Source: Tepidisphaeraceae bacterium
GTDB lineage: Bacteria; Planctomycetota; Phycisphaerae; Tepidisphaerales; Tepidisphaeraceae
DNA length: 64,000 nucleotides
Reading direction: 5' to 3'
NCBI GenBank assembly: GCA_035998445.1
Contig: DASYHQ010000050.1
Coordinates: 89,647 to 153,646 of the forward strand
Both the position numbers and the translations under genes were made by a program. Every line of letters starts with the position of its first letter. The first letter of the stretch is position 1. Below are positions 38,091 through 56,067 of the stretch, in pieces. The notes beneath the pieces were generated by a model, which saw only the letters and a program-made list of their open reading frames with translations, had not been told where the DNA came from and searched no databases.

Positions 38091-38225
38091 GGCGACAAGT
38101 TCGTGAATCACACGACGCCGCGCCACCCCGCCGCTGGGGGCGCGGCGTCGTCGTTTAATTACTCTTTTCCTTAGGCCGCGTTGTTGTTCCCAAAGCACGG
38201 GGCTTCGGCGCATACTGTCGGCATC

Positions 38226-40934
38226 ATGAACAAGCGCAGCATCGTTTCGATGGCGACGGCGGTGGTGTCGGTGGTGGGTTCGGTTGCGGGCATCGCGCGC
38301 GGGCAGGACCCGATGGTGATGTCGCCGATGTTTCCGTTCGTGTTGCCGTGGGACGACGTCAGCGAGAACGTGACCAACGTCAGCAGTTGGCTCGACGCGC
38401 CGGCGGGCAAGCACGGGTTCATCGCCGCGCGCGGGCCGCACCTGTACGCGGGCGAACAGCGGTTCCGCTTCTTCGGCGTGAACATGGCCTTCGGGGCGAA
38501 CTTCCCGCAGAAGGACGACGCCGACAAGGTGGCCGCCCGCATGGCGCGGTTCGGCATCAACTGCGTGCGCTTCCACCATATGGACATGTTCGCGGCGCCA
38601 GCGGGCATTATGACGGCCGACATGAAGGGGCTGGACGCGCAGCAGCTGGACAAGCTGGACTTCTTCGTCGCGGCGCTGAAGCAGCACGGCATCTACAGCA
38701 ACATCAATCTGCACGTGAGCCGCGTCTACCCGGACATGCCCGGGTGGGAGAACGCGCCGGACTTCCATAAAGGCGTGGACCTGTTCTATCCGCCGATGAT
38801 CGAGGCGCAGCGCGACTTCGCGCGGCAGCTGCTGTCGCACGTGAACCCGTACACGGAGACCAGTTACGCGGACGAGCCGGCGGTGGCGATCGTGGAGATC
38901 AACAACGAGAACGGGCTGCTGCAGCAATGGTGGGGAGGCGCGCTCGACGCGATGCCCGAGCCGATCGAGCGCGAGCTGCACAACCGATGGAACGCCTGGC
39001 TGAACGGCAGGTACGCCAGCCTCGACGACGTGCGCAAGCAGTGGCAGGAAGGCGCCGAGCCACTCGGCGAGCCGATGCTGCGCAACAGCGACTTCGCCCA
39101 AGGCATGGACGGCTGGACGCTGGAGCGCCACGGTGAGGCTGACGCGAATGCGACGATCGACGAGAACGCGGGCAACGGCAACGGCGGGCGCGCGATTCGC
39201 ATTACCGTGGACAAGCCCAGCAGCGAGTCGTGGCACGTGCAGCTGGTGCAGCCGGGCCTAAGCCTGAGCAAGGGGAAGGCGTACACGCTATCGATGCGCA
39301 TGAAGGCGAGCGGCGACTTGAAGAACACGAACGTCGCGATGGCGCAGTCCGGCAGCCCATGGAACGTGCTGGCGAGCAGCAGCGTGCCGCTGACCGACCA
39401 GTGGAAGGACGTAACGCTCGTGCTGCGCGCCAGCGCCGATGAGCCCAACGCCCGCCTGATGATCGGCGGGCTGGCAGCGGCCAAAGGCGAGGTGTCGATC
39501 GCCAACCTTTCGCTGCGCCCCGGTGGGCGCGGCGGGCTGAAGGACGATGCGAAGCGCGGCGACATCCCGATCGTCACCAGGGCCCACTACGGCGCGCTGA
39601 CCGAGTCGGCGCAGCGCGACTGGATCACGTTTCTGTACGAGACCGAGGAAACGTACTGGACCGAGATGAGCGCGTTCCTGAAGAATGATCTTGGCGTAAA
39701 GTCGCTGGTGGTCGGCAGCGCGACCGGCTTCAGCCCGTCATCCATTCAAGCTAAGCTGGACGTGGTGGACGTGCACGGCTACTGGCAGCACCCGCACTTC
39801 CCCAACAAGCCGTGGGACCAGGCGGATTGGGTGGTGAACAACCTGTCGATGGCGGGCGCCGAGGACGGAGGGCAGATCCCCGGCATGGCGCTGCGCCGCG
39901 TGGCGGGCAGGCCCTACATCTGCACCGAGTACAACGCCGCGTCGCCGAACACGCATTCGTCGGAGACGTTCCTGCTGCTGTCGGCCTACGCGGCCATGCA
40001 GGACTGGGACGGCATCTTCGCCTTCGCCTATTCGCACCGCACCGACGACTGGGCGGCGGGCAAGATCCCCAACTTCTTCGACATCGACCAACACCCCACC
40101 AAGCTCGTCACCCTGCCCGCAGCGGCGGCGATGTTCCTGCGCGGCGACGTGACGGTGCCGGACGCGCGAGCGGTGGTGAACGTGTCGCGCGAGGAGGCGA
40201 TCACGCAGAGCATGAACTCTGGCCCCTGGTGGCACGCGGGCGCGTTGGGCATCGACCCGCTGACGGCACTGGTGGCGCCTGTGGCCATCGACACCGGCGA
40301 CGCCACCCCGACGACGCAACCGGCGGCAACGACACCGGCGACCGCGGCAGCCGAGGCGACAACGGCGGCGGCCAATGCGCCGGTGAAGATTGATCCCCCC
40401 ACCGCCGGGCAGCCGATCGTCAGCCGCGGTGGTGAGTTGACATGGGACGCGCAGCGCAAATACGTCACGATCAACACGCCGCGCAGCAAGGCGTTCATCG
40501 GGGAGATTCCGGCCGACCAACCGATCGCGCTGGGCACGGTGAAGCTGACGCTCAGTCCGAACCTGCAGAACTGGGCGGCGGTGTCGATGACGGCGATCGA
40601 CGGGCCTGACTTTCAGTCGCCGGGCCGGTTCCTGATCACCGTCACCGGATCGGCCGAGAACACCCGCATGGGCTGGAAGAACGCCGAGCGCAACACGGTG
40701 GGCCGCGACTGGGGCGAGTCGCCATCGCTGGTGGAGGGCATCGGCGGCACGATCACGTTCGAGAACGTCGACAAGGAAACGTGGGCATGGGTGCTCGACG
40801 AGCGCGGCCAGCGACGCTTGGAGACGACGAAGATCAGCACGCCGACATCCAAGGGGTTCCAGTTCGGCCGCGAGTCGGGCACGATCTGGTATGAGGTGGA
40901 GATCGGCAAGGAATCAGCGTTGGTAGATCGGTAG
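38226..40934 (+). CDS. Secreted glycoside hydrolase family 5 enzyme with CBM-like and C-terminal beta-sandwich domains
   Basis: Signal peptide. GH5 motifs (FRFFGVNM ... RFHHMD, IVEINNENG as the catalytic acid region). An internal CBM-like segment and a Thr/Ala/Pro linker. Confidence 0.75.
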   Translation: MNKRSIVSMATAVVSVVGSVAGIARGQDPMVMSPMFPFVLPWDDVSENVTNVSSWLDAPAGKHGFIAARGPHLYAGEQRFRFFGVNMAFGANFPQKDDADKVAARMARFGINCVRFHHMDMFAAPAGIMTADMKGLDAQQLDKLDFFVAALKQHGIYSNINLHVSRVYPDMPGWENAPDFHKGVDLFYPPMIEAQRDFARQLLSHVNPYTETSYADEPAVAIVEINNENGLLQQWWGGALDAMPEPIERELHNRWNAWLNGRYASLDDVRKQWQEGAEPLGEPMLRNSDFAQGMDGWTLERHGEADANATIDENAGNGNGGRAIRITVDKPSSESWHVQLVQPGLSLSKGKAYTLSMRMKASGDLKNTNVAMAQSGSPWNVLASSSVPLTDQWKDVTLVLRASADEPNARLMIGGLAAAKGEVSIANLSLRPGGRGGLKDDAKRGDIPIVTRAHYGALTESAQRDWITFLYETEETYWTEMSAFLKNDLGVKSLVVGSATGFSPSSIQAKLDVVDVHGYWQHPHFPNKPWDQADWVVNNLSMAGAEDGGQIPGMALRRVAGRPYICTEYNAASPNTHSSETFLLLSAYAAMQDWDGIFAFAYSHRTDDWAAGKIPNFFDIDQHPTKLVTLPAAAAMFLRGDVTVPDARAVVNVSREEAITQSMNSGPWWHAGALGIDPLTALVAPVAIDTGDATPTTQPAATTPATAAAEATTAAANAPVKIDPPTAGQPIVSRGGELTWDAQRKYVTINTPRSKAFIGEIPADQPIALGTVKLTLSPNLQNWAAVSMTAIDGPDFQSPGRFLITVTGSAENTRMGWKNAERNTVGRDWGESPSLVEGIGGTITFENVDKETWAWVLDERGQRRLETTKISTPTSKGFQFGRESGTIWYEVEIGKESALVDR

Positions 40935-41987
40935 CAAGCGGTACGGCACGGTGAGCGTGAGCACCGACATGCTGGTGCTGTAGACGCGGCCGGGTTCCTC
41001 ACCCGTGCGGCTGGCGGGCCAACCGCCGTCGGGCATTTGCTGGGCCAGCAGGCGATCCATCGTGGGTGGCCAGACCGCCTGCCACGTTGCCCCGCCCGCT
41101 TGAAACGCGGCCTGCGCGGCGTAGTAGGTGGCGTAGTACGGGTAGCGGGTGGTCTCGGTGGCGAGGTTGTTGGCTAGGAACTCTGCGGCCGCCGCGGCCT
41201 CGGGGTAGTCGGCCGAATCCAGCAGGCGCAGGTTCAACAGACCCACGCCGGTCATCGCGGTGCTCGGCTCGTGGCCAGCCTGATACGCGAAACCCTTCTT
41301 GTCCTTTCGATAACACCGCAGCACGTACTGAACCGCGCGCGCCACGCGTTCCTTCGGCACTTCGATGCCCGCGTTCTGCGATGCCCGCAGCGCCAACGCG
41401 TTCCAGCCAGACAGCGACAGATCGCTATCGACCGACTGCGGCTCGTAGCGCCAGCCACCGGTGTCGTTGGCCGACTTCTTCACGTCCTGCGCGTCCAGGA
41501 TCACCTTCACCGCCCGCGCGATGGCCGCCAGCATCTTCTGGCGGCGCTCGGGGTCGGGTTCGATGCCGGCCGCCTCGGCCAAGGCCAGCGTGGTGATGCC
41601 GTGACCGTACATCCGGCTGCCATCAACCTTGCCGAAGTACCCGTCCGCCGGCGCGACCGACAGCAGGTAATCGATTGCCGACCGAACCGTCTCCCCGTGC
41701 AGCCCCACGTCGGGAGTGTGCCCCGCCGCCAAAAATGACATGAGCCCCAGCGCCGTCATCGCGACGCGCGGCCCACCACTGTCCAGCGAGCCGTCAGGCT
41801 TCTGCTGAGCGGCCAAGAACGCCAGCCCGCGCGAGACGCCTTCATCCAATCGTGCAGGCAACGGATCGGCCTGCTGGGCGCGCACCGTGACCGGCGCAGC
41901 GAGCAGACAACCAATGACGATCGCCACGATGAACACCGGGAACCAGCCGCGTGAACGCGCCGTCAAGTGAAACAGTCGACGATTCAT
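40914..41987 (-). CDS. Secreted prenyltransferase/squalene-oxidase-repeat protein (terpenoid-cyclase-like alpha/alpha toroid)
   Basis: Signal peptide. Repeated Q/W/G motifs (DGSLDSGG, DTGGWRY, DGGWP) typical of PFTB/SQHop-cyclase repeats. The ATGA overlap with the upstream giant gene gives a 4-nt overlap. Confidence 0.6.
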   Translation of the reverse strand: MNRRLFHLTARSRGWFPVFIVAIVIGCLLAAPVTVRAQQADPLPARLDEGVSRGLAFLAAQQKPDGSLDSGGPRVAMTALGLMSFLAAGHTPDVGLHGETVRSAIDYLLSVAPADGYFGKVDGSRMYGHGITTLALAEAAGIEPDPERRQKMLAAIARAVKVILDAQDVKKSANDTGGWRYEPQSVDSDLSLSGWNALALRASQNAGIEVPKERVARAVQYVLRCYRKDKKGFAYQAGHEPSTAMTGVGLLNLRLLDSADYPEAAAAAEFLANNLATETTRYPYYATYYAAQAAFQAGGATWQAVWPPTMDRLLAQQMPDGGWPASRTGEEPGRVYSTSMSVLTLTVPYRLLPIYQR

Positions 41988-44900
41988 TTCGTCCCCCCAT
42001 CGCCCGCCTTGCCGAGCGTTTCGAAGTACAACCGCACCGGTTCTTCGAACCCAACGGGGTCGGAATCGCGCCGCACCGCCGACGTCTCGGGCTTCGTGCC
42101 GACGCGCATGCGACCCCACTGCCGCAAGTTCGGCACGAGCGACATGATCCGCTCGGCGGCCTCGCCGTCACCAGCGCCGCCATCGGCGTTGACCGGGAAA
42201 AGGTTGAAGACCGACATCATCGACGGCACCGTCGCCATCCGTTCGCCCGCCGCCTGGTGGATCGATCGGTCCCATGCGCGCGTGAGCGCCGCCGACGCCA
42301 CGCGCTGTTGCCGCTCGGCCGCCAACAGGTCGGGTGGTCGCATCTTCAGCGACCGCACGGCCGCGCGCGAAAACCAGCGGGCGGCCACCAACGGGTCGCG
42401 CTCGATCAGCTCATCCTGTGCCGCGAGCAGTTCCGCCTGCACCTGCTCGATCGCCTGGCGCGTCTTGCCAGCCGCACGCTCCAGCTCATTCGCATCGTCC
42501 ACGCCGACCGACTGCGCGTACGCGCGCAGCGCAGGCAGCAGCGCGCGATCAATCGCCTCGACGCCTCGCCGGGTCGGCGGACGGTAATTCGACAGGTCGG
42601 CCGACATGCCTTCGGCCACCTGCGGCCGCACCGGCACAGCGGCGGCGTTCGTACGCGTGACGGCCTCAGCTAGATCGCGATCGGCCTGCGCAATCACGCG
42701 CTGCGCCGCAGGCAACTGATCGGCCGGCGTGGCATCGGCAGACTGCTTTGCCCGATCAAGGCGAACTGCGGCGTCGCGGCGTATGCCATCCGCTCGCGCC
42801 ACCTGTGACAGGGCCTGTGGCATCGCAGCCAACTGCTCCTGCGCGGCCTGGATGGCGGCGATGGCCTCCTCGCGCCAGTCTGGATCGTCGGCGTTGCGCA
42901 GGTCCAGTCGAGTGTCGGCGTGAACCTCGCCGATCGCGTCGGTCAGCGTTTCCTGCTTCGTCGCCAGTTCGCCGGCGCCATTAGGCGGCGCGAGCCTTGT
43001 TTCCTCGGCCAGCGCCTGCTGTTGCGCCGCCAGATGGTCGATCCGCTCCGCCGCGGCCATCGTTCGCGCTGCCCGGGGCAGCGGCATTTCATCGCCGCCG
43101 TTGGCCTCTGGGGCGGCGGACTGCGTTGTCGAACGGGCCAGCGCGCGGTCAATGTGCGCCGCCGTCGCGTAATCGCGTGTGGCAGCGGCGGCGTTCGCTT
43201 CGATGGCGAGCGTCTCGGGCGACGCTTCGATCGATTCCTGTTCAGGTTGAACGCTCACGTCCACCTGTTCCAGCCCAGCCCAGGCAAACATGCGCCGCCG
43301 GCCCTCGTTCGCCACGCGCTGTCGGTCGGCCACCTCGTCGGACGATGGCCGGTCCTTCATCGGGCGGTTGGTCTCGTGATACCGCTGCAGCGCGAGCATC
43401 GACGCGGGATACAATTCGCGCGGCAGTGGATCGGTCGGCCGCGTGGTGGGCGCGACGCGATTCGTCTCGATGCGCGACGCCGCCTCGGCCGCCACGTGCA
43501 CGTCGCGGGCGCGCACGAGGTCCGCATCCGGCCGGATCGATTCCGCCTGCGCGGCCATCGTCAATCGGTCGTCGAACCCCGTACGCTTGTGCGGCTTGGC
43601 GATCTCGACCGCCCAGGCATCGGCGGCCTTCGCAAAGTCGGGCAGTTGCTCCGACTGCATCACCCGATCGGCCGCCTCCACGCGACGCTGCAACTGCTCG
43701 GCGACATCGCCGGCGCCGGGGTTGATCTCCAACTGCTTCAGCGATTGCGCAAAGTCCTCCGACAACCGCTTGATGCCAGCCTTAAGCACTTCGGGATAAT
43801 CCGGAACGGCGGCCCGCGTGGTGGCGGCGGCGACGTTCTCCCGCTCGGCCAGTGCCGCGATCGCCCGCTCGCCGATCGCCAGCGTGGCCAGCATGTCCCG
43901 CAGTTCCCGTGCCCGCTTGACGGATTCGTCGATCTGTGAACGGGCGCCCTCGCGGTCGCTGCGAATGCCGATCAGGCGTTCACTGGCCAACAGCTGTTGC
44001 TGGGCCACGTCCAGCGCAGCGGCGAGCGCGACGGACATCTCGTGTGACCGGCTGCGCAGCGTCGCCCGCAACAGCGACTGCCGCAGCACCGCCGCCGACT
44101 CACCCACGCGCGCCACCGCCCGGTTCGCCTCCGCGACTGCCGACAAGTACGCGCCACCACGCGCCGGCTGTTTGGCCAGCGCCTCGAACGCCTCGGCGGT
44201 CGTCGCCCACGCCTTCAACAATCCCTCGGCCACCGTGCGGGCGGCGCTCAGTTCCACCACCCGCTGGTGCGCGTTCATGTCCATCGACCGTGGCGACACC
44301 AGCGCCGTGACCGGGCTGCTCTCGGCGGTTTGCGACCGGCCGTCGCGTGCCTGAACGGTCACCGCGATCACGTCGCCCACGTTCACGTTCAACGCCGCCA
44401 GATCCAGTGGGTACGTCTGTTCCTGCTGTCGTGGGTCGCCGATCACCTTCAGCCCGATGCGGAGTGACGCCACGCCATTCACCTTCACCAGCGCCGCAAG
44501 TTCGCTGACGCCGTAATCATCGAACGCCTGGTACGACAGCGGCATGAGGTCGCGCGGGCCGGGCCGTGGACCCTCACCGGAGTCAAACACGCGCACCAGT
44601 GGTGGGCGATCGGGCAGGGCGCGGATCGCGTACTTCCCTAACTCGTTCGTTGCGCCCCGCTCGCTCGTGAGCGCAACGCTGTAGCTGGCGTCCTTCAGCA
44701 CCGGTAACGTCACCTGCCGCACGTTTGTCTCTAACGTGCGCGCTAGTTGGAGTTGCTTATCCCCCACCTGCAGGGCCGCCGCCAAAAGGGGTTCGGTCGC
44801 GGCGATGGTTACCGTGGCCTGCGTGCCCGCGGGCGCTTCGATCAGGCCGGTACGATTGCTTACGATCAACGGTGGGCGCTTCGTGTACTCGGGGTAAACG

Positions 44901-45787
44901 TACCGAATGCGGAAGTCGGTGATCAGCGGCCGGCGCAGCACCTGCACGTCGTATGTGGGCGTGACCGCGTCGCCACCGGTGACGAAGTACCGCACGTCGC
45001 TGCTGAGCGTGTCGAACCGATGCACGAAGCCACGCTCGGTCTGCACCATCGCGTGCTGCGACCCCACCTGCCCTCCGGCCGACACCACATGCAGGCGCGG
45101 CACGTCGCTGCCCAAGCGATCGGCCGTCACCAGCACCGACAGCGACTGCCCCTGCTGCACCTGCGCCGCCCCCGGCATCACGTTGAGCCGCGTGGTGGTG
45201 ACCGGTGCGATGTCCGCCAACGGCAACGCAGCACGCGCAGCCAGTTGAGGCAGGTTGAGCCAGCGGATCGGCAGGCAGGCCAGCACGGTGATGCACGCGA
45301 TACCCAGCAGCACCCACGGCCGCGCGATAAGGCGCAACGGCAGCAGTGGGCGTGGGTCGGCGTCCTTCGCCTGCGCGGTTGTCGACTCGACGACCTGCTG
45401 CAGCATCGCCACTGATCCGTGATACGCCTGCGGCCCGAGCAGCCGCGACGTAACGGTCGACAGCCGCTGCTGCCAGCGTGGGTCGCACCGCTCAGCCAGT
45501 TCGCTGGTCGCCTCGTAGTCTGTTCGGCCGCGTGCCCATCGCCACAGGACGGGCAGGAAGACGGTGGCGGCGAACGCGATGTTGACGAGCAACAGCGCCA
45601 ACCTAATGCCGCCGGGCAGGCGCAGCAGGCGATCGACCAGGCACGACGTCAGCCCGAACAGCACGAGGATCGCCAGCGCGCGACCCGTTGCGCGCAGCAG
45701 CGACAGCTTGCGCTGCCGTGCCGCAAGGGCCGTCAGGTAGCCTGCAATCGATGCGGGCAGGAGGTTGTCTGACGCGCGCTTCATCAT
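41984..45787 (-). CDS. Giant (1267 aa) membrane-anchored hypothetical protein: N-terminal TM helices, a central beta-rich region and a ~600-aa Ala/Arg/Glu-rich helical region
   Basis: Hydrophobic segments at aa ~35-75 and ~150-170. The low-complexity A/R/E/Q-rich C-terminal half has no enzymatic motif. Confidence 0.6.
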   Translation of the reverse strand: MMKRASDNLLPASIAGYLTALAARQRKLSLLRATGRALAILVLFGLTSCLVDRLLRLPGGIRLALLLVNIAFAATVFLPVLWRWARGRTDYEATSELAERCDPRWQQRLSTVTSRLLGPQAYHGSVAMLQQVVESTTAQAKDADPRPLLPLRLIARPWVLLGIACITVLACLPIRWLNLPQLAARAALPLADIAPVTTTRLNVMPGAAQVQQGQSLSVLVTADRLGSDVPRLHVVSAGGQVGSQHAMVQTERGFVHRFDTLSSDVRYFVTGGDAVTPTYDVQVLRRPLITDFRIRYVYPEYTKRPPLIVSNRTGLIEAPAGTQATVTIAATEPLLAAALQVGDKQLQLARTLETNVRQVTLPVLKDASYSVALTSERGATNELGKYAIRALPDRPPLVRVFDSGEGPRPGPRDLMPLSYQAFDDYGVSELAALVKVNGVASLRIGLKVIGDPRQQEQTYPLDLAALNVNVGDVIAVTVQARDGRSQTAESSPVTALVSPRSMDMNAHQRVVELSAARTVAEGLLKAWATTAEAFEALAKQPARGGAYLSAVAEANRAVARVGESAAVLRQSLLRATLRSRSHEMSVALAAALDVAQQQLLASERLIGIRSDREGARSQIDESVKRARELRDMLATLAIGERAIAALAERENVAAATTRAAVPDYPEVLKAGIKRLSEDFAQSLKQLEINPGAGDVAEQLQRRVEAADRVMQSEQLPDFAKAADAWAVEIAKPHKRTGFDDRLTMAAQAESIRPDADLVRARDVHVAAEAASRIETNRVAPTTRPTDPLPRELYPASMLALQRYHETNRPMKDRPSSDEVADRQRVANEGRRRMFAWAGLEQVDVSVQPEQESIEASPETLAIEANAAAATRDYATAAHIDRALARSTTQSAAPEANGGDEMPLPRAARTMAAAERIDHLAAQQQALAEETRLAPPNGAGELATKQETLTDAIGEVHADTRLDLRNADDPDWREEAIAAIQAAQEQLAAMPQALSQVARADGIRRDAAVRLDRAKQSADATPADQLPAAQRVIAQADRDLAEAVTRTNAAAVPVRPQVAEGMSADLSNYRPPTRRGVEAIDRALLPALRAYAQSVGVDDANELERAAGKTRQAIEQVQAELLAAQDELIERDPLVAARWFSRAAVRSLKMRPPDLLAAERQQRVASAALTRAWDRSIHQAAGERMATVPSMMSVFNLFPVNADGGAGDGEAAERIMSLVPNLRQWGRMRVGTKPETSAVRRDSDPVGFEEPVRLYFETLGKAGDGGTK

Positions 45788-45836
45788 CCTACGTTACGAC
45801 CTTCGCTTACTTCGTGTTGATGACGCCAACGGCGGG

Positions 45837-48419
45837 TCACGCCAATCCAAGCCGTTTGCGGAGCGCCCACTCGGTGCCAAGGCAAGCCAGCACGAACAGG
45901 AACAACTGCGGGCTGTCCCACAGCGACCACCGAGCCAGACCGTACCGCGCGTCGCCCGCCGCCAGCAGACGCTGCGGTAGATCTTCGAATGACTCCACGG
46001 TTGCATATGCACCGCCGGTCGAGTCGGCCAACTGCTTCAAGAACTCCGGGTCGGACGCAACGTTCAGCATCTCGCGATTGGCGTCCACCTCAACAAACAG
46101 CGGCACGTGTGGCGAATCGGGCCGGTCGATCGATAGATCGTATCGCCCGCTGGCCAAGTTGGTGAGCCGCGCTTCAAAACGGTCATCGCCAGCGTCGGTC
46201 GCGGCCATGACAACGTCGGGCAGTGCTTCTCCATCGCGCGATACTTTCAGGACCATCGACTCCGTGGGCGCGTCGGCATCATCCTGCGGCTGCACGCGTG
46301 CCCGCACAGTCGCGCTTCCCCCAGGCGACAACGTTACGGCGTCCACGTCGATCGCTGCGCCACCACCGCGCGCGGCATAGGGTTCACCCGCGGCATGGCG
46401 GATGAGTTGCAGTAAAAATCGGTCCTGGTCGCGCTCGCCGATTTGTCGCCGCCAACGCCACGTTTCGTTCAGACCGACAAACAGCACCCGGCCGCTGCCG
46501 AGGCGCATCTGCGTCATGACCGGCGATTGCGAGTCCGGCTCGATCAACAACGGCTCGGCGGTCGGCTTGAGCCCCGAGAGCGGCAGCACGCGGAAGAGCT
46601 TGGGCAGCTCTTGCCATCGGCGGGCCGATTCGTCGGCATCATCCGCCAGGCGCAGCGACACGATATCGCGCGCCAGCGGCGCCGGCGCGACGCGCAGCGT
46701 CGGCCGTTCGCCCGCCCAAACGCGCCATGCGTACCGCACGCCCGCGCGCAACGGCAGCAGGCTGGCCGCCTGCGGCTGCTGCGCGTAGCCGTCCAGCACG
46801 CGCTCATCGTTGGCCAAGATGATAACGCTGCCGCCGCGCGTCGAAACCATCTGATTCAGTGCATCCCACTGGGCGCCGTTTAGCGACTCCACACCGATAT
46901 CGCACAGGATGATCGCGTCCTGCGCCAGTATCTCCGCTGGCGACAACGGCAGCTTCACCTCGCGCGCGACGACGATCGCCTCCTTCAGCTGCGCCCACGC
47001 GGCCCGCTGAAGCGCGTTGCGTAGGTACTGAAAATCCCACGTCGGCGAACCGGCGTAAGCAGCGATCCGCAGTTTCCCCGCGAGCGCGCGCATGCGGTGT
47101 GATGCGGTGTTGTTGGTGTCCGTGCGCTCGCCGGGTTGAGGCGGCAACGCGACGACAACATCCAGCACACCCGCGGGCTCGGCCTTGAAGGTGAAATCAA
47201 CGGTCGCGTCACCGTCGGCCGCTGGCGAGACCTGCTTCGTCTGTTCGACGTTCCCAGCCTTCAGTCGCACGTCTATTGGCCCAGCGAACCGGCCGCTGGT
47301 GCGCACGCGTGCCTGCACCGTCACCGTCTCGCCAACGAATGGTCGCAGCGGCGCAGAGACGATCTCTACCGACGCATCCCGCGGTGGCACGGCCGGCGCG
47401 ACGTTAACCGGGAAGACCGGCGCAGCCGTGGCCGCGTTGGGCTCCGCATCGGTCGCCACCTGTCGACCATCGGTCCAAAGCACCACGCCCCGCACCCGGC
47501 CGGGCCCGAAGCGCGCGATGGCGGCCGACACCGCATCACGGCTGTCGCTGCGCGCGGCTGCGGGCTCGACGGACGTGATGGACGCCAGCGTGACGGGCGC
47601 AGCCCCATCGTCGGTGGCGGCGTAGACGAACAGCGGCACGTCGACCGGTAGCGCCGCGGCCACGCGGGCCGCGCCTTCGGCCGCCAACTGATAGCGCGAG
47701 CGCTGCCCGACCAGATCTGCGGCTGCGCGAACGGTGGGATAGGTGCGGTACCGTTGCCCATCACTCCGAGCCGCAGCGTTGGCCATCGCGTCGGCAACGC
47801 GATCAGCGCGGGCGCGCAGCGTAGCGTCGGACGCGTCGCCGTCGCCCATCGCCCGGATGGCGCGCAACACGTCTTCATCCAAGGCCGGCACGTCCGTAGC
47901 GACGAGTTGTCGCCGGGCCTCGTCCACGGCAGCGCGCGCGTCGGCTGTCAGGCGGTCGAGCGATTCCGCATCGCTGCCCGAGGGGTCGGCCAGCCGGGCC
48001 TCCGCCCGCGTGCGCTGCAGCGCATCCAGCGCGGCCGTCAGTGCATCAATTTGTTCCCGGACCCGCACGTGAACGGGGTCGGCCCGCTCGGCGGGCAGGC
48101 GGCCGACGGCGCGGGCGATGGCCACGCGGTCGGCCGGTGTGCGTTCGTCGACGATGCTCATGCTTTGCGACGCGTCGATCACCATCAGCACCGCGCCTCG
48201 GTCCACCTGCGGGTTCGGCGCCGCGAGGTTCGGCTTCAGCACCGATAGCATGAGCAACACGATCGCCGTGATGCGTAGCAGCGGCAGCGCAGCGCGGGCC
48301 GCCCAGTGCGACATGCGCGCCTGCGGTCGGTACGCCCAAACAACGAACGCGATCGCTACGATCAGAAGCACCAGTGTGGCCGGCAGCGCGCTCAGGTTGT
48401 CCCAACTGAAGCGTGCCAT
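45837..48419 (-). CDS. VWA-domain membrane protein (BatB-like), ~860 aa
   Basis: N-terminal TM pair, then the MIDAS motif LMVIDASQSMS, and a C-terminal TM. The start ATG shares 1 nt with the upstream stop (TGATG). Confidence 0.6.
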   Translation of the reverse strand: MARFSWDNLSALPATLVLLIVAIAFVVWAYRPQARMSHWAARAALPLLRITAIVLLMLSVLKPNLAAPNPQVDRGAVLMVIDASQSMSIVDERTPADRVAIARAVGRLPAERADPVHVRVREQIDALTAALDALQRTRAEARLADPSGSDAESLDRLTADARAAVDEARRQLVATDVPALDEDVLRAIRAMGDGDASDATLRARADRVADAMANAAARSDGQRYRTYPTVRAAADLVGQRSRYQLAAEGAARVAAALPVDVPLFVYAATDDGAAPVTLASITSVEPAAARSDSRDAVSAAIARFGPGRVRGVVLWTDGRQVATDAEPNAATAAPVFPVNVAPAVPPRDASVEIVSAPLRPFVGETVTVQARVRTSGRFAGPIDVRLKAGNVEQTKQVSPAADGDATVDFTFKAEPAGVLDVVVALPPQPGERTDTNNTASHRMRALAGKLRIAAYAGSPTWDFQYLRNALQRAAWAQLKEAIVVAREVKLPLSPAEILAQDAIILCDIGVESLNGAQWDALNQMVSTRGGSVIILANDERVLDGYAQQPQAASLLPLRAGVRYAWRVWAGERPTLRVAPAPLARDIVSLRLADDADESARRWQELPKLFRVLPLSGLKPTAEPLLIEPDSQSPVMTQMRLGSGRVLFVGLNETWRWRRQIGERDQDRFLLQLIRHAAGEPYAARGGGAAIDVDAVTLSPGGSATVRARVQPQDDADAPTESMVLKVSRDGEALPDVVMAATDAGDDRFEARLTNLASGRYDLSIDRPDSPHVPLFVEVDANREMLNVASDPEFLKQLADSTGGAYATVESFEDLPQRLLAAGDARYGLARWSLWDSPQLFLFVLACLGTEWALRKRLGLA

Positions 48420-50578
48420 CAGCCGCGCCCTCCTGCCGACCAGCGGCGTGCAAGCAGCATCTCGCTCATCAGCAGCACGCCACACAGCGCCAGTAACGAG
48501 CCCCACAGCTCGCGCCCCCGGCGGTCGCGCGAGAGCGACCATGGCACGGGCTGCTGACTTAGGTCAATGCGCTGCGCGCCCATCGCTCCGGATATCTCAT
48601 CCCACCGCGCGATCGACAAGGGCGTGATGTCCGACTCATCTCGCGACGGTCGCATGACGAACGGCGTCGTCCGCTGGCCCGTTCTCGTGCGATAGCGCAC
48701 CCGATACAAGCCATCGACAGAAGTGTCGTCGTACCGCACCTCGGTGCGCGCGCCGTTGCGGTAGACGGCTGGCGATACGGTGCGGCCGCTGGGGAGTTGT
48801 ACGCGTACGTCACCATCAATGGGCTCATCGATCGTGAGGACGATTGGCTCGCCCGGCGCCACGTTGCGCTCGCGGTCGCCCGATGCAAGGTGGCGCACCA
48901 TCGACTGCACGAACGGCAGGTAAAAGCTGGACAGCGGCAACGCCGACCAGTCCGCATCCAAGCCCGTCGTCATCAAGGCCACACGCCCACGACCCCAGGC
49001 CGACTCGACCAGGAACGGGCGGCCCGAAGCATAGGTCACCGCCACCGTGGCATCGGGCTGGCGCGGCGTGACCGGGAAGTATCGCCCAATGACCACGTTC
49101 GGAATAGGGTCAGGCCGGCCGCGCAGGAAGGAAAGCGCCGGGTGCAAGAAGTCGACGCCGAGGATCGCTGTCGCCTCTGCCCCACCGGCGGACGTGGGTG
49201 GTTGCAGTTCGGCGGGCAGAATGCCGGCGCCGTCGCGCCAGAGCTGCGCGTTGTACTGCTGCGCGTCCACCAGCGTGCCGGGCGCGATCAGGAGGCCGCC
49301 ACCTTCGTACACGAACTGCTCGATCGCCTTTACGCTGGCCGGGCTCAACTGTCCCACGTTGGCCAGCACCAGGACCTGCTGTGCGTCCAACATGGCGGGC
49401 TCAAACTGCTCGGCCGGCACCACCGTGACGGCGGCGGGGTCGACGCCCTTCTTGCCGGCGGCGGTGTAAGGCGCGACGGCAATGCGGAAGAACGTGGACT
49501 CCGACGCCGCCGCGTCGCCGCGCTCGTCACCGCTTAGTAATAGCACGCGTACCGGTGGCGTCACGCTGACGACGGCACGCAGCGCGTCGTCGGTTTGCAG
49601 GCCGGGCGCGGCGATGCGCGCCTCGATCAGGTGCGAGCCGGGCGTGGCAAAGCTGGTCGTGAAGCGGGCCGTCGCGGTCTCGCGCGCGGCGACGGCGAGC
49701 GTCTGCTGCGCGATCTCGCGCGCGCCGCGGTGCAGCGTGACCGGCACCGATGGCTGCGCCGTCGGGCCGTAGTTGCGCACGCGCACCTCGACGGTGGCCC
49801 GTTCGTCGACGATCGCTGGCGTCTGGACGAACTGCACCGATTCCACCGCGACGTTCTCGGCCAGTTCGCCCCCAACGGGAAAGATCGACAGTCGCGCGCC
49901 GGCCGATGCATCAATAGCCGCGTCTCGTCGCCACGCGCGGGCAAAGTCGAGCGTGACGTTACGCCAGTTGGTCGCCTGCCGATCGCAGACGATGAAGATT
50001 CGGCCATCTTGCTGCGGCGCGGCGCGTTGTAATAACCGATCGGCGCGGTTCAGTTCCTGCGCGAAATCGACGGCCCGCCCCGCCGGTCGGGCGGCTGCGA
50101 TGCGGGCGGCGGTCGTGCGCAGATCGGTGGTGGGCGAGAGTTCGGCATCGTCCTGTGCCTGACCGGCGAGCAGCAGCGCCACACGGTCCCCCTGCCGTAA
50201 CGTCGCCAGCAGCTTCAGGGCTGCCTCGCGAGCGGCTTCCATGCGCGATTGGTTACCCTCGACGATCGCCATGCTTGGCGAGCAGTCGAGCATCAGCACG
50301 ACCGTCGCAGGCCCGCCGGGCGCAAGGGCCGCCCACGATTCACTGGTGATCGGGCGGGCCATCGCCAGCGCCAGCAGCGCGACGATCAGCATCCGCATCG
50401 CCAGCAGCGCGTACTGCTTCAGCTGGCTTGACTGCCGATCGCGCGGGTCGGCCCCGTGCAGGAACATCATCGCGCCCCAGTCCACGCTGCGGTACCGCGC
50501 GCGGCTTAGCAGGTGTAGCACCAACGGCAACAACGCGCCGCCGAGGCCTGCGAGCATGAGGGGGTTGAGGAAGGTCAT
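48419..50578 (-). CDS. BatA-like protein: N-terminal double-TM anchor (TIGR02226-like MTFLNPLMLAGL...HLLSR) plus VWA domain
   Basis: N-terminal motif. The MIDAS motif VVLMLDCSPSM. 719 aa. Confidence 0.7.
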   Translation of the reverse strand: MTFLNPLMLAGLGGALLPLVLHLLSRARYRSVDWGAMMFLHGADPRDRQSSQLKQYALLAMRMLIVALLALAMARPITSESWAALAPGGPATVVLMLDCSPSMAIVEGNQSRMEAAREAALKLLATLRQGDRVALLLAGQAQDDAELSPTTDLRTTAARIAAARPAGRAVDFAQELNRADRLLQRAAPQQDGRIFIVCDRQATNWRNVTLDFARAWRRDAAIDASAGARLSIFPVGGELAENVAVESVQFVQTPAIVDERATVEVRVRNYGPTAQPSVPVTLHRGAREIAQQTLAVAARETATARFTTSFATPGSHLIEARIAAPGLQTDDALRAVVSVTPPVRVLLLSGDERGDAAASESTFFRIAVAPYTAAGKKGVDPAAVTVVPAEQFEPAMLDAQQVLVLANVGQLSPASVKAIEQFVYEGGGLLIAPGTLVDAQQYNAQLWRDGAGILPAELQPPTSAGGAEATAILGVDFLHPALSFLRGRPDPIPNVVIGRYFPVTPRQPDATVAVTYASGRPFLVESAWGRGRVALMTTGLDADWSALPLSSFYLPFVQSMVRHLASGDRERNVAPGEPIVLTIDEPIDGDVRVQLPSGRTVSPAVYRNGARTEVRYDDTSVDGLYRVRYRTRTGQRTTPFVMRPSRDESDITPLSIARWDEISGAMGAQRIDLSQQPVPWSLSRDRRGRELWGSLLALCGVLLMSEMLLARRWSAGGRG

Positions 50579-50685
50579 GGGAACGAGCGTTCTACGGTCA
50601 GCCTCTCGTTTACCAGGGTTCAGGCAAGGGGGGTCTCATGAGGATTTGCTCTCAAAGCACAACAGGCCGACACCTCGCGTGCTAT

Positions 50686-50895
50686 GTCATCCCGAGCGGA
50701 GCCTGAGGCGACGGGAGGGATCTCAATTGGCCGCGCAGTTCTCGCCCAGTGGAGCTGCCTCAGGTCGGCAAGCCTCCCAGCGGGATGACGCGGGTTCTGA
50801 TAACGCCCTTCATTAGCTACTCCGGCGTTTGCCGCCGTTCGAAATCACCCTCACTTAACCCTCTCCCGGCGTACCGGAAGAGGGACCGGAATTGG
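50686..50895. repeat. Family-C element (50686-50790) followed by a family-B hairpin (50835-50895) between DUF58 and the BatA-like gene
   Basis: gtcatcccgagcggagcctgaggc ... cgggatgacg, then cgaaatcaccctcac ... ctctcccggcgtaccggaagagg. Confidence 0.7.
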
Positions 50896-50916
50896 CTACC
50901 CAAGCATCCTTTGAAC

Positions 50917-51831
50917 CTATCGCCTCGCCGTACCACCGCCACTGCCGCCTCCGCGCATGTGCAGGAACTGCGTGAGCGAATCGATTAGCGGACGGTCGGT
51001 CATCAGCGTGTGGAACTCACTTCCGAGCGCGCGGGCGCCGTCGGTCAGGTCCTGGCGGTGCTGGCGGAAACGGTGCAGGTACGCCTCGCGCACGAGCGCC
51101 GGCTCGCAGACCGTCGCGGCCTCGCCTTCCAGTCCGCGGAAGCGCGACCAGGTGCGGAACGGAAACTCGACCTCGTCGGCGTCCAGCGTGCGCAGCAGGA
51201 TCGTCTCGTGGCGGTCGTGGCGCAGGCGTGCCAAGCACTCGCGCACCTGTTCGACCGGGTAGAACAGGTCCGAGACGATGATCACCAGCGCCCGCCGATC
51301 GAGCCGGTTGGCCACATCGTGCACCGCGGCCTGAAGCGACGACTGACCGGCGGCGGTGGAACGTTCGAGCACGTCGATAATGCGCGACAGCTGCGCCTGC
51401 CCCGCGTGCGGGCCGATCCAGCTGGCGACCCGCGACTTGAAGACGGCCAGGCCGACGCTCTCCGTCTGCCCCAGCATCAGGTACGCCAGCGACGCGGCGA
51501 GCGTCGAAGCGTAATCGAACTTCGACCCTGCTGCCGATCGGTAGGCCATCGATCCGCTCGCGTCGATCATCAGCACGCAGCGGAGATTGGTCTCCTCGTC
51601 GTACTCCTTGATGTACGGCCGATCGGTACGGCCCAGCACGCGCCAGTCGAGCCGGCGCGGTTCGTCGCCGGGCGTGTAGAAGCGATGCTGGCGAAACTCG
51701 ACGCTGGCGCCCTTCACCGGGCTCTTGTGCTGCCCGACGGTGCTGCCCTCCACGACGCGCCTCGCCGACAGCTGCAGGTGGTTCAGCCGTTCGATCAGGT
51801 TCGGTTCCAGCAGTCGCGAAACGTAACTCAT
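50917..51831 (-). CDS. DUF58-family protein (degenerate VWA, usual partner of a MoxR ATPase)
   Basis: RVVEGSTVGQHKSPVKGASVEFRQHRFYTPGDEPRRLDWRV and LMIDASGSMAY. Confidence 0.8.
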   Translation of the reverse strand: MSYVSRLLEPNLIERLNHLQLSARRVVEGSTVGQHKSPVKGASVEFRQHRFYTPGDEPRRLDWRVLGRTDRPYIKEYDEETNLRCVLMIDASGSMAYRSAAGSKFDYASTLAASLAYLMLGQTESVGLAVFKSRVASWIGPHAGQAQLSRIIDVLERSTAAGQSSLQAAVHDVANRLDRRALVIIVSDLFYPVEQVRECLARLRHDRHETILLRTLDADEVEFPFRTWSRFRGLEGEAATVCEPALVREAYLHRFRQHRQDLTDGARALGSEFHTLMTDRPLIDSLTQFLHMRGGGSGGGTARR

Positions 51832-51862
51832 CGGCAGCCTATTCTATGCGCGCCGGTGCGGG

Positions 51863-53506
51863 TCAGGCGTTGTCTTCGTCTGGCTCGTCGGCCATCGTGG
51901 GCGTGCGCAGGTCGATGACGACGGTGCCGGCCGCGGCGTCGCCGGCGCGCTGGCCGAGCGGGGAGAAGACGACCAGCAGGATCGGTAGTAGGAACGGTGC
52001 CAGCAGCGCGATGTCGACGATGCGCAGAACGTTGCGAACCAGGATCGCCGACACCGTCGGTCGCACGCCCTGCAGATCGACCACGGCCAGCCCAAAGATC
52101 GCCTTGCCGAGCGTGCGCCGGAAGATCAGTTCGGAGATAGTCGTGTGCAACAGGTAGACCGCGATGCCGATCAACCCTTGCGCCGTCGCGGCGAGCGTGG
52201 GGGAGACGATTTCGTCGGGCTGACGGCGCAGGTAGTACACGACGCCACCGATGATCAACGGTAACGCGTCGACCGTGGCCGCCGACATGCGAATCCAGAA
52301 CTTGGCGGCGCGTGGGCGGTCGCGGCGGGCCATCGTCTCGCGCACCACGTCGCGCTGCCGGTACGACGCCATGATCGTCACCGCCAGCATTACCACCACG
52401 CCGATGTTCACAATGCTGAACCACGCCGGCTCTTCATCGGGTGGCGCCAGCAGACGCACCGGTTGCGGTTCACCGACCGGCTGGCCGTCCCAGGTCAACC
52501 GTTGCTCGGTCACCTTACCGTCGGCGGCGACGTTGATGGTCCGCAGTGTGCCCAAGGCCGACGCGACGGTCGAACTTTGGCTTGCGGGCACGGCCGTCGT
52601 GGTAGCGAGCGTATTGGTGAAGTTGTCAACCGGGACGATCCGGCTGGCGCTGCCATCGCCGGTCCAGATCCAGGCGCGGTGCTCGCCCTGCACACCGCCG
52701 AAAAACGCAAGCGGGCCGCCATCGATAGGCGTGGTGGACGTTACCTGCCCATTGGCGGGGTTGATCGTGAACAGCGTCGAGTTGCCCGGCGAGCTCGTGA
52801 CGGAAACGATCACGCGGTCAGCCAGCGGGAGGATCTCGGCGCCGTTGATCAGGTCGAGCGGTGGCTGCGTGGGCAGTTGGACGATCGGCCTCCAGATGGC
52901 GCCGTCCAGCCGAAACAGCACGACGGCGGAACCGGTGGTGGCCGGTTGCGTCGCCGGGCCGGTGGCTGCCGCTGCGGGACCGGTGCTTGGGGCGGTAATC
53001 GTCGTCGTGGTTGTCGCGGCGCGGGGGCCGGTGGTGGGACGGGTCGCGGCGCGGGCGCTGTCGATGCCACCGGGCACGGTGCCGACGGCCCAGACGCTTT
53101 GCGCTTCGGCACCGATGGCCAGGATGCGGCCCCCCGCCGGCAACGGCGTGCCACCACCACTGCCACCGGGCCACACAGCGATCCAGTCACCGTCATCGGC
53201 CAGCAGGATCGCGCGGTCGGTCCAGCGCGACAGCGCGACCACGCGCTCGGGGATGCGCGCAACAACGGAGAAACGTTCCTGGCCGAACGTGCGCTTGTAG
53301 ATCGTGCTCTCGATCGGCGTGGTGGCGCTGCCGGTCGGCTTGCCAACGGCCAGCCAGAACCCGTCGGCCGACCCGGTTGCCGCGACGCTGCCTGCAGCGG
53401 CAGCGGTGGTGGCAGCCGTCGTCGTCGGCAGGGTCTGGGCCAGTGCCGGTGATGCGAGGAGGACCAGGAACAGGAGGACGAGAAGATTACGGGCCGCACG
53501 CTTCAT
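51863..53506 (-). CDS. Secreted protein with a C-terminal RDD-family membrane domain
   Basis: Signal peptide, a Thr/Ala-rich linker, beta-rich repeats, a C-terminal RDD-like region (RQRD ... RRTLGKAIFGLAVVD) and TM helices. Confidence 0.55.
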   Translation of the reverse strand: MKRAARNLLVLLFLVLLASPALAQTLPTTTAATTAAAAGSVAATGSADGFWLAVGKPTGSATTPIESTIYKRTFGQERFSVVARIPERVVALSRWTDRAILLADDGDWIAVWPGGSGGGTPLPAGGRILAIGAEAQSVWAVGTVPGGIDSARAATRPTTGPRAATTTTTITAPSTGPAAAATGPATQPATTGSAVVLFRLDGAIWRPIVQLPTQPPLDLINGAEILPLADRVIVSVTSSPGNSTLFTINPANGQVTSTTPIDGGPLAFFGGVQGEHRAWIWTGDGSASRIVPVDNFTNTLATTTAVPASQSSTVASALGTLRTINVAADGKVTEQRLTWDGQPVGEPQPVRLLAPPDEEPAWFSIVNIGVVVMLAVTIMASYRQRDVVRETMARRDRPRAAKFWIRMSAATVDALPLIIGGVVYYLRRQPDEIVSPTLAATAQGLIGIAVYLLHTTISELIFRRTLGKAIFGLAVVDLQGVRPTVSAILVRNVLRIVDIALLAPFLLPILLVVFSPLGQRAGDAAAGTVVIDLRTPTMADEPDEDNA

Positions 53507-54380
53507 CGACTTGGATCACTTTCGCCACACCGGGCTTGTTCAGGGGCAACACGAACGCTGCGTCTTTCGGGAAACCGTTGCGCGACAACAACGGGTCGCG
53601 CAGGCGAAGGATCATACGGGAACCGGTGTCCGGAAACGACAACGTGTACACCGTAGCGACCTTAGCGCCGGTGTCGGCGTTGCGCTGGGTGGTCACGGGC
53701 TCGTGGTTGGCCAGATCCGCCCGCAGCAGCACGCGGCCGTGCTCGCCGTAGAGCATCACGCGCACCGGCAGCAGCGACTTGCGGTCGTACCAGACCTCGC
53801 GCTGGGCAGCCCACTGGGTTGGCTGGCGCACGTTCCAGGTGACCATATAGACGTCCTGGTCGTTGTTGAACCGCAGCACGGGGGCCGGCAGGTTGAGGAA
53901 GTTGCTGTCGATGCGCCCCACGCCCAGCACCTGCGCGATCAGGGTCGGGTCGAGCGGGACCTGCTGCGAGCAAGGCGATCCGACGAACCGCATGCGCCCC
54001 CACCACATCGTGTCGACCTCAGGGCGAACGGTGAGCCAGTAGGTGTCGCCGTTGGTGCCGAGGGTCATGATCTCGCCAAGGCCGACCTTCTTGCAGTTAA
54101 GCCGAAAATCGCCACCGGCGCGATATTGCAGTTCACCGTCGCCGTCGACGTAGGTCTCCTTCTGGCGTTCGTCGACGATCCAGGCTTGAAACGTGTGCCG
54201 CGACCAGAGGGTGGGGAGTTTCTCGTTGTTGGCGTTGACCTCATCGACCACGGCAGCCAAGGGCAGCGTGGGACCGGCGTAGTAGGTGGTCGGGCGGATG
54301 TCCGGCGGCGACGGACAGCCCGTAGTCAGGGTTAGAATTACGAGAAGCAGACTCGCTATGAACGACGTGCGGTACATCAA
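53487..54380 (-). CDS. Hypothetical lipoprotein (297 aa)
   Basis: Signal plus lipobox LTLTTGC. It overlaps the downstream RDD gene by 20 nt. Confidence 0.55.
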   Translation of the reverse strand: MMYRTSFIASLLLVILTLTTGCPSPPDIRPTTYYAGPTLPLAAVVDEVNANNEKLPTLWSRHTFQAWIVDERQKETYVDGDGELQYRAGGDFRLNCKKVGLGEIMTLGTNGDTYWLTVRPEVDTMWWGRMRFVGSPCSQQVPLDPTLIAQVLGVGRIDSNFLNLPAPVLRFNNDQDVYMVTWNVRQPTQWAAQREVWYDRKSLLPVRVMLYGEHGRVLLRADLANHEPVTTQRNADTGAKVATVYTLSFPDTGSRMILRLRDPLLSRNGFPKDAAFVLPLNKPGVAKVIQVDEACGP

Positions 54381-54381
54381 T

Positions 54382-54894
54382 TCACCCCTCGTTCAATATT
54401 TCCGTGAGCTGTCGGCTGACGTCGGCGACCTGTTCTTCGCGCAAATGCGGGTTCAGCAGGTCCAGCGGTTCGTCGCGGCCGCGGAGCTTCATCGCCCAGA
54501 TCTCCTTACCGTCGTCGTTGCGGCTGCCCTCGTAGCTCAGGATGCGCTTACGCATCAAAATCAGCCCGAGCACGAAGCGGAAGTTCAGTTTGGGCTCTTC
54601 GGTGGCCTCGCCTAGGCGTTCGAAAAGTTCGGTGAGGATCGCGTCGTCGACGAACAGTTTCTTCTTTTGTTCCGGCCGGGGCATGGTGGTCTGCCAGAAG
54701 GCCAGCAGATCGGTCTTGTCGATCGCATCCCAATGGTCTGGCAGGACGTCGACGCGCTGCAACCCCGTCGGCGTGTCGCGTAACGCAGCGAAGAAGCGCA
54801 TGCCGGGCTCGATCGAGTTGCCGGAGACCGAGCACGTGCCGCCGGGGCGGGACATGTCGTACGTGCCGGGTTTGGGCGGGCTGGTGGTGGCCAA
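54382..54894 (-). CDS. Hypothetical 170-aa protein, first gene of the cluster
   Basis: ORF with protein-like composition. Its stop abuts the lipoprotein start. Confidence 0.45.
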   Translation of the reverse strand: MATTSPPKPGTYDMSRPGGTCSVSGNSIEPGMRFFAALRDTPTGLQRVDVLPDHWDAIDKTDLLAFWQTTMPRPEQKKKLFVDDAILTELFERLGEATEEPKLNFRFVLGLILMRKRILSYEGSRNDDGKEIWAMKLRGRDEPLDLLNPHLREEQVADVSRQLTEILNEG

Positions 54895-54963
54895 GTCGAA
54901 CCTCCTGTTTGACGGCGAGACGGTGATTCTTAATCTCCGTGCTTCATCGAAGTTTAGGCGAGC

Positions 54964-55242: not shown

Positions 55243-55249
55243 GATTGTC

Positions 55250-55385
55250 CGCTCCGGCCCCTCTCCCGGTATTCCGGGGGAGGCTGAGAGGGGGTGAGTT
55301 TGCCTTAATAGATTCGCCAGCCGTTCGAAGCACCCCCACCCTAACCCTCCCCCGGAGTACCGGGAGAGGGAACCAGACGAACTCA
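55250..55385. repeat. Family-B palindromic pair
   Basis: ctctcccggtattccgggggagg and ccctcccccggagtaccgggagagg. Confidence 0.75.
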
Positions 55386-55394
55386 CTTGAAGCT

Positions 55395-56018: not shown

Positions 56019-56067
56019 GGGCCCAACATGCGGTGCAATGCGATTCCGCGGCAACGGCGAACTGATT

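Follow-up and report, generated by a model that had tools for sequence, protein, structure and literature searches.

A minus-strand gene cluster of a Tepidisphaeraceae bacterium probably combines two independent operon modules, one of them a Tepidisphaerales version of the MoxR/DUF58/BatA/DUF4175-type envelope operon

The window analyzed here is a stretch of 64,000 nucleotides (nt) from a Tepidisphaeraceae bacterium (Phycisphaerae, Planctomycetota; a metagenome-assembled genome, assembly GCA_035998445.1, contig DASYHQ010000050.1, forward-strand positions 89,647 to 153,646), in which a long run of minus-strand genes encodes, among others, a DUF58 protein, a BatA-type VWA protein, a giant membrane protein of 1267 amino acids (aa) and a secreted protein of terpenoid-cyclase fold. 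A first-pass annotation had described eight consecutive minus-strand genes at 40914-54894 as one envelope complex of a MoxR-less, Bat-like kind. All eight are intact both in the list of open reading frames (ORFs) and in the independent JGI gene calls (contig Ga0370534_00026) on which our gene layout is based, and we number them g1 to g8 in order of transcription, from 54894 down to 40914. The junctions it gave are likewise right: a 20-nt overlap at 53487/53506 (g2/g3), a single shared nucleotide at 48419 (g5/g6) and an ATGA overlap of 4 nt at 41984/41987 (g7/g8). Genes on the same strand go on past 54894, with a 92-aa ORF, an FTCD_C gene, a response regulator, an AP_endonuc_2 gene and a phosphoglucomutase, so that the number eight is an arbitrary upstream cut. 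We report that the run consists of two modules: module B, comprising g4 to g8 (40914-51831), and module A, which lies upstream at 51863-56674 and ends with g3.

Genes g4 to g8 form a real conserved module, whose most stable core is g6-g7(-g8). Species representatives of GTDB were scanned with an alignment of eight giant sequences, which gave 21 loci, nearly all from Tepidisphaerales; further loci came from exact-protein look-ups, and all window proteins were compared by tblastn with every locus. Of the eight genes, g4 to g8 are the only ones that recur as a set in about 25 related Tepidisphaerales loci. The g6 gene stands directly upstream of g7 in 22 of the 23 informative loci, g8 follows g7 directly in 16, and g4-g5 precede g6 in 16. 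Three loci (L003, L008 and L010) carry g6-g7-g8 only, and g8 is absent from L004, L021 and L024. The module is itself split or rearranged in some genomes, and DUF58-BatA can sit elsewhere: in L007, g8 is close by but inverted upstream, while g5, g4 and a gene termed X (described below) are inverted downstream. In L113 the operon begins at DUF58, behind a divergently oriented sulfatase gene. The stop codon of the giant and the start codon of g8 overlap by 4 nt in each of the five cases with gene calls (the window, L003, L030, L112 and L113). Module B is also present in L016, the complete genome of the cultured Fontivita pretiosa, which opens it to genetic study.

The first gene of module B, g4 (50917-51831), encodes a 304-aa DUF58 protein that has a metal ion-dependent adhesion site (MIDAS) motif, DxSxS, at residue 90 and no transmembrane (TM) helix (here and below, TM helices and topology of g3 to g8 come from a hydropathy and motif scan). 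It matches Pfam DUF58 (PF01882) at E 3e-44, with 151.2 bits against a gathering score of 23.4, and is 53-86% identical to the DUF58 proteins of relatives. The 719-aa product of g5 (48419-50578) combines the double-TM N-terminus of the BatA/TIGR02226 family with a VWA domain bearing a MIDAS at residue 98, an Ig-like region and a C-terminal TM helix; it matches BatA (E 2.6e-19), VWA_2 (E 8e-11) and TIGR02226 (E 1.6e-25; 89.2 bits over residues 1-80 of 719, cut-off 23.05). With Pfam and NCBIfam scores above their cut-offs, the DUF58 and BatA/TIGR02226 assignments of the first-pass annotation are confirmed, as is its RDD assignment for g3. Its call of g6 (45837-48419), an 860-aa membrane protein, as a second VWA protein fares less evenly: two N-terminal TM helices, a MIDAS (DxSxS) at residue 82 and weak paralogy to g5 (E 7e-6) speak for it, and the lack of any Pfam VWA match speaks against it. 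The C-terminal part of g6 aligns to a PF07090 protein of L005, an outgroup locus (tblastn E 2e-10), and neither g6 nor four of its orthologues matches PF07090. In L030 (1633-3868, on a 4.9-Mb contig of a metagenome-assembled genome, MAG), the BatA/VWA gene, the counterpart of g5, is called as three consecutive ORFs of 275, 123 and 333 aa, probably an assembly frameshift error or a pseudogene.

The giant, g7 (41984-45787, 1267 aa), has three hydrophobic TM segments near its N-terminus. Its close homologues, which align over the full length at 27-59% identity, all belong to Tepidisphaerales or Phycisphaerae. Further out, phmmer matches PF13779 (DUF4175) proteins with E-values of 6e-19 to 7e-6, covering 19-37% of the query within its N-terminal quarter to third; against Pfam, g7 gives no match at E<=0.01 and stays below the DUF4175 (PF13779) gathering score. 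An AlphaFold2 model of residues 68-1267, built from a 23-sequence alignment with a mean predicted local distance difference test score (pLDDT) of 81, starts with helices at the N-terminus, followed by three beta-sandwich domains (about residues 200-497) and about 700 residues of long helices, ending in a poorly modelled stretch (pLDDT below 50) and a short terminal helix. Compared with the PDB, this model found generic tandem Ig/FN3/MG matches only (Foldseek), and the g7 profile found no relative among PDB sequences. The TM scan, the model and outgroup synteny agree on a DUF4175-like layout, in which N-terminal TM helices are followed by a long extracytoplasmic region and the gene comes after DUF58-BatA. 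Judged from the phmmer matches and the position after BatA, g7 appears to be a distant relative of DUF4175 and not a model-level member of the family.

The last gene, g8 (40914-41987), is coupled to g7 and encodes a 357-aa protein with a signal-peptide-like leader, predicted to be Sec-exported. Its structure model (33 sequences, pLDDT 91) shows one (alpha/alpha)6 toroid domain, with the fold of the terpenoid-cyclase/prenyltransferase superfamily; together with matches of its family profile to squalene-hopene and oxidosqualene cyclases (E 5e-8 to 3e-7, confined to the structural QW/PFTB repeats), this bears out the first-pass description of a secreted protein of terpenoid-cyclase fold, as a statement about fold. 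On Pfam Prenyltrans g8 itself scores 23.1 bits, under the cut-off of 26.5, and its squalene-cyclase match is likewise sub-threshold; many orthologues carry precomputed PF00432/PF13243 matches. More than 700 relatives are detected, the best 120 of them at 52-90% identity. Across the related loci g8 is the most conserved secreted component of module B, most loci showing 48-71% identity and L011 37%, compared with 31-57% for the giant, and it holds many invariant aromatic and acidic residues. The catalytic general-acid motif of the cyclases, DxDD or DxDTT, does not occur as a string in the g8 sequence. An invariant D187-S-D189-L-S was considered as a counterpart of cyclase DxDD and rejected, as it aligns, non-significantly, with a structural repeat of squalene-hopene cyclase (residues 300-325). 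Catalysis by g8 is neither supported nor excluded, and the toroid may bind a ligand or act on one. The 3' end of the gene (40914-40934) overlaps by 21 nt that of a convergent plus-strand gene for a 917-aa Cellulase(weak)/CBM_4_9 protein (38181-40934). Toroid-repeat proteins may be multi-copy in Tepidisphaerales: another Prenyltrans/SQHop_cyclase-repeat protein is encoded at L029:1-480, about 9 kb upstream of the module A copy there.

Module A is a separate conserved block and not a conserved partner of module B. Two further loci, L028 and L029, each a contig from another Tepidisphaerales MAG, were located through homologues of the lipoprotein g2. The order in L028 is response regulator, M16 peptidase, FTCD_C, g1, g2 and g3 (RDD), followed by an opposite-strand alanine racemase (alr) gene; in L029 it is response regulator, FTCD_C, g1, g2 and g3 (RDD), followed by an opposite-strand gene with a YdjY domain (PF27149). 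L028 belongs to the same MAG (GCA_038223165.1) as L006, a separate contig on which module B reads X, DUF58, BatA, the 860-aa protein, the giant and the toroid; since the two modules of one MAG thus sit on different contigs, module A is an independent block. The modules adjoin only in the window and in L027, a close relative (giant 58% identical) that keeps the eight-gene arrangement at 51-86% protein identity. With this sole exception, tblastn found no homologue of g1 to g3 beside module B in about 20 other loci. The adjacency in the window and L027 is a lineage-specific juxtaposition by rearrangement. The first-pass annotation had named an arrangement that is not conserved in related genomes as evidence against a single unit, and for g1 to g3 this is what was found, module A ending before opposite-strand genes in L028 and L029. 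Its one-unit claim stands in part: g4 to g8 are conserved, tightly coupled and envelope-type, while g1 to g3 belong to a block of their own with FTCD_C and the response regulator. The neighborhood comparison that it proposed divides in the same way, the toroid recurring with BatA/TIGR02226 and DUF58, and the RDD gene doing so only in the window and L027. The gap between g3 and g4 (51832-51862) measures only 31 nt, which makes read-through joining the modules plausible, and module A may be co-transcribed with module B in this bacterium.

No MoxR gene was found in the 64-kb window by tblastn with a MoxR consensus (best E 0.38); the identical query recovers MoxR from related loci, at 61-71% identity, so the negative is meaningful for these 64 kb. 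Immediately upstream of DUF58 the window has the RDD gene. In relatives this position is often held by X, a protein of about 270 aa that matches the protein-kinase domain in part (Pkinase E 3e-9 to 9e-7) and carries a TM helix at its C-terminus. X retains the beta3 Lys, and because its HRD is replaced by HGA or HGS and DFG is missing, we regard it as a pseudokinase. The order MoxR-X-DUF58 occurs in L009 (X at 2783-3568), L016 of F. pretiosa (3469-4050) and L019 (3541-4185), whereas X stands without an adjacent MoxR in L006 (775-1587), L013, L023 (2475-3347), L024 and L112 (1908-2717). In L030 X is directly upstream of DUF58, and the locus starts inside X, which places the MoxR position outside it. 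L011, L012, L021 and L113 have neither gene upstream, and housekeeping or divergent genes are found there instead. In L011, L012, L013, L021, L023 and L024, the 3.6-4.2 kb upstream of DUF58 contain no MoxR, nor is there one in L112 or L113. When metagenomes were scanned with X, DUF58 turned out to be the next gene downstream in 37 of 48 informative loci, and MoxR preceded X in 8 of 28; no locus from Ga0370534 or Ga0334927 came up, which leaves the scan uninformative on MoxR-X elsewhere in the window's own metagenome. The window has no X. Its ORF of 301 aa at 24360-25265 (plus strand) is weakly similar to the kinase-like core of X (E about 1e-3) and is probably an unrelated kinase-fold gene. 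The label MoxR-less given in the first pass thus holds for this locus and fails for the system, as MoxR-X directly upstream of DUF58 in L009, L016, L019 and the eight metagenome loci indicates. The module B system thus appears to be of MoxR type, with MoxR in Tepidisphaerales probably encoded elsewhere in most cases.

The remaining genes of module A have their own features. The response-regulator receiver gene (56165-56674; Pfam Response_reg E 2.5e-29) occupies the equivalent place relative to FTCD_C-g1-g2-g3 in L028 and L029, and the FTCD_C/cyclodeaminase-like gene (55395-56147; Pfam FTCD_C E 8.2e-40) is syntenic in L027, L028 and L029. Between FTCD_C and g1 lies the JGI-called 92-aa ORF (54964-55242), Cys-rich (CC...CPKC) with a weak RNHCP match (E 0.0055); an 83-aa gene takes its position in L027. 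The 170-aa cytoplasmic protein g1 (54382-54894), syntenic with g2-g3 in L027 to L029, is part of a very large family without annotation (1053 representative relatives at E<=1e-3), whose consensus, CxxCG...CxxCW, is zinc-ribbon-like and is degenerate in the window copy, where only Cys21 is kept. Neither g1 (Pfam, NCBIfam) nor 35 members of its family (Pfam) gave a match, and the family profile found nothing significant among PDB sequences. The product of g2 (53487-54377/54380, 296/297 aa) is a probable lipoprotein with an invariant Cys21 behind a hydrophobic leader; it has no family match above threshold in Pfam or NCBIfam, and the sole match of its profile to PDB sequences, a LolA-like lipoprotein-sorting protein, is non-significant (E 0.31). 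The 547-aa product of g3 (51863-53506), the last gene of the module, has a signal peptide, a periplasmic region of about 330 aa and a C-terminal RDD membrane domain (PF06271 over residues 401-527, E 4e-10, 40.5 bits against a gathering score of 24.1).

Module B contains one wide intergenic gap, 338 nt between g4 and g5 (50579-50916), which had been described as filled by repeat elements; comparison with the window by blastn found two dispersed repeats in it. The larger, of 106 nt (50684-50789), includes an imperfect inverted repeat of 19 nt and shares 85% identity with 27161-27266; the smaller, of about 54 nt (50837-50890), shares 91% identity with 57905-57957 and has shorter copies around 5456-5546, 18465-18488 and 20854-20884. 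Both families are short and intergenic, with 85-96% identity among copies. The g4-g5 junction of L027, the closest relative, measures only 37 nt and has neither repeat, from which we conclude that the repeats are recent insertions. A scan of 40500-57000 for promoters and terminators found sites no more numerous than in shuffled sequence, and none at the module boundaries.

Taken together, our findings make it likely that the region joins two independent operon modules brought together by lineage-specific rearrangement, module B being the Tepidisphaerales version of an envelope operon of the MoxR(MRP)/DUF58/BatA-type VWA/GATase1-like/DUF4175 kind. By this account g5, g6 and g7 would form an inner-membrane-anchored periplasmic scaffold that carries g8, and a MoxR ATPase, acting in trans from another locus of this genome, would drive assembly, remodelling or turnover of the scaffold from the cytoplasm. 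DUF58 (g4) could then serve as a VWA-type substrate-recruiting co-chaperone, after the model in which vWA proteins recruit substrates to MoxR via their MIDAS (PMC3495828). By analogy with the Rhizobium RL3499-RL3502 operon, the role of module B is probably in envelope integrity or morphology. Several points weigh against this account. MoxR is missing from the window and from this position in most related loci, and we infer the dependence on it; g7 is under the Pfam DUF4175 threshold, its link to that family consisting of phmmer matches over 19-37% of the query; and g6 matches neither Pfam VWA nor GATase1_like. The membrane topology comes from the hydropathy scan only. The gap of 31 nt between g3 and g4, finally, is short enough for read-through to join A and B.

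That short gap, together with the common strand, tight spacing and overlaps elsewhere, would also suit a different arrangement, in which all eight genes specify one envelope complex, a Bat-like system without MoxR that has taken in the RDD protein, the lipoprotein and the 170-aa protein. The persistence of the arrangement in L027 and the envelope nature of g2 and g3 fit this as well, but module A stands alone before opposite-strand genes in L028 and L029, the two modules occupy different contigs of one MAG, g1 to g3 are missing beside module B in about 20 other loci, and the upstream neighbor of DUF58 varies among relatives (X, MoxR-X, housekeeping genes or a divergent gene); we therefore hold a single eight-gene complex to be very unlikely. 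The scarcity of MoxR beside module B raises the alternative that the module is truly MoxR-independent in Tepidisphaerales, with DUF58 and the VWA proteins working without an AAA+ partner and an adjacent MoxR being a relic. The eight related loci without MoxR upstream of DUF58, the 8 of 28 frequency in the metagenome scan and the window itself agree with this. Where MoxR is present, however, it is directly upstream on the same strand as MoxR-X-DUF58, including in the complete cultured genome L016, and it directly precedes DUF58 in both outgroup clusters; operon dispersal is common, and the MoxR searches covered loci, not whole genomes. Independence from MoxR is thus unlikely, and we keep to a MoxR-type operon with MoxR encoded elsewhere.

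Other alternatives concern what g7 and g8 do. The strong conservation of g8 and its invariant aromatic and acidic residues would be expected of an active enzyme, be it a class II terpene cyclase, a prenyltransferase or an alpha/alpha6 glycoside hydrolase/isomerase, that acts on a periplasmic lipid or glycan and is positioned or regulated by the membrane proteins. This is decidedly unlikely, given that g8 has no DxDD or DxDTT string, that its profile matches are confined to structural repeats and its Prenyltrans score is sub-threshold, that prenyl diphosphate substrates are cytoplasmic, and that the (alpha/alpha)6 fold is also used for non-catalytic binding. Foldseek matches of the giant model include the MG-domain arrays of A2ML1, complement C5 and CVF, as they would if g7 and g8 were a split alpha-2-macroglobulin-like periplasmic protease trap, with MG-like beta-sandwiches in g7 and g8 as a thioester-domain-like toroid. 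We rejected this as hardly credible: the Ig-like and toroid fold matches are generic, with TM-scores around 0.1 for the giant, g8 lacks the CGEQ thioester motif, and about 700 aa of g7 are helical, unlike alpha-2-macroglobulins. It is conceivable, if unlikely, that module B is a rebuilt MoxR/DUF58/BatA/DUF4175 machine in which g8, on the helical g7 stalk of about 700 aa, handles an envelope lipid or glycan (polyprenyl-linked or hopanoid-type) and the pseudokinase couples the machine to MoxR; if true, this would for the first time give access to the function of the DUF4175 operon class as a whole.

Operons of the MoxR-DUF58-BatA-DUF4175 type are widespread across bacterial phyla and are linked to envelope integrity and stress tolerance; to our knowledge, no mechanism has been described for them. 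Our analysis defines a clade-specific version with a five-gene core, a toroid translationally coupled to the giant and a pseudokinase associated in relatives. It also removes a false lead, as the RDD protein, the lipoprotein and the 170-aa protein are neighbors by rearrangement and not components of the system.

Among described systems, the Bat operon of Bacteroides, Leptospira and Borrelia (MoxR, DUF58, BatA-BatE) shares with module B a DUF58 protein, a VWA protein with the BatA N-terminal domain and a second MIDAS-bearing membrane protein. In Borrelia, BB0173, which has a BatA domain, sits in the inner membrane and exposes its VWA domain to the periplasm (PMC5700661). Unlike the Bat operon, module B has no adjacent MoxR and carries the giant and the toroid as extra genes, and Pfam and NCBIfam searches at E<=0.01 found no equivalent of BatC (TPR), BatD or BatE (SH3/TPR) among the eight proteins. 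The Rhizobium leguminosarum RL3499 MoxR operon is described as important for membrane integrity and morphology (PMC3893208; PMC5700661, citing Vanderlinde 2011). As the citing papers present it, RL3499-RL3502 (cmdA-D) is a "broadly conserved operon" that resembles module B as a system of MoxR(MRP) type with which VWA membrane proteins are associated; we found no other member of this operon type with envelope-integrity and morphology phenotypes in such descriptions. It differs in having four genes with MoxR first, and those descriptions report neither a giant nor a toroid. The bifidobacterial PFNA cluster (pkb2 kinase, fn3, MoxR-type AAA-ATPase, duf58 and tgm; PMC8430577) ties a kinase-fold gene to MoxR and DUF58, as does MoxR-X-DUF58 in relatives of the window. 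Unlike the PFNA kinase, X is a short pseudokinase anchored by a TM helix at its C-terminus and is absent from the window itself, and there is no transglutaminase.

The closest likeness is to the canonical MoxR-DUF58-BatA(TIGR02226)-DUF4175-GATase1_like cluster found in several phyla. Two outgroup examples were compared, both with MoxR directly upstream of DUF58: L005, with the order GATase1_like, a 348-aa protein, Peptidase_MA_2/TPR, DUF4159, MoxR, DUF58, BatA and DUF4175, and the P0035 contig, with Peptidase_MA_2/TPR, DUF4159, MoxR, DUF58, BatA, DUF4175-like, GATase1_like and a 338-aa protein. Like this cluster, module B has DUF58 followed by a BatA/TIGR02226 and VWA protein, a DUF4175-type protein of about 1150-1270 aa and a membrane protein of 735-860 aa, putatively of GATase1_like type, tightly packed on one strand. 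Unlike it, MoxR is not adjacent here or in most Tepidisphaerales; DUF4159, the TPR/Peptidase_MA_2 protein and the protein of about 340 aa behind GATase1_like are all absent; the putative GATase1_like paralogue precedes the giant instead of following it; and g7 and g6 fall under the Pfam thresholds of DUF4175 and GATase1_like. The 348-aa protein of L005 was considered as a counterpart of the toroid and rejected (hhalign probability 0.2); the toroid is in neither the canonical Bat nor the DUF4175 cluster, in agreement with the first-pass remark that no such protein was known to it from described Bat-type operons. Compared at the level of protein families and gene order, the Tepidisphaerales version appears to have lost DUF4159, the TPR/MA-peptidase and the protein of about 340 aa, and to have moved the putative GATase1_like paralogue ahead of the giant. 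Its apparent gains over the canonical cluster are the secreted alpha/alpha toroid and, in relatives, the membrane-anchored pseudokinase. Module B is a clade-specific variant of a known operon type, a modest finding and not a new system.

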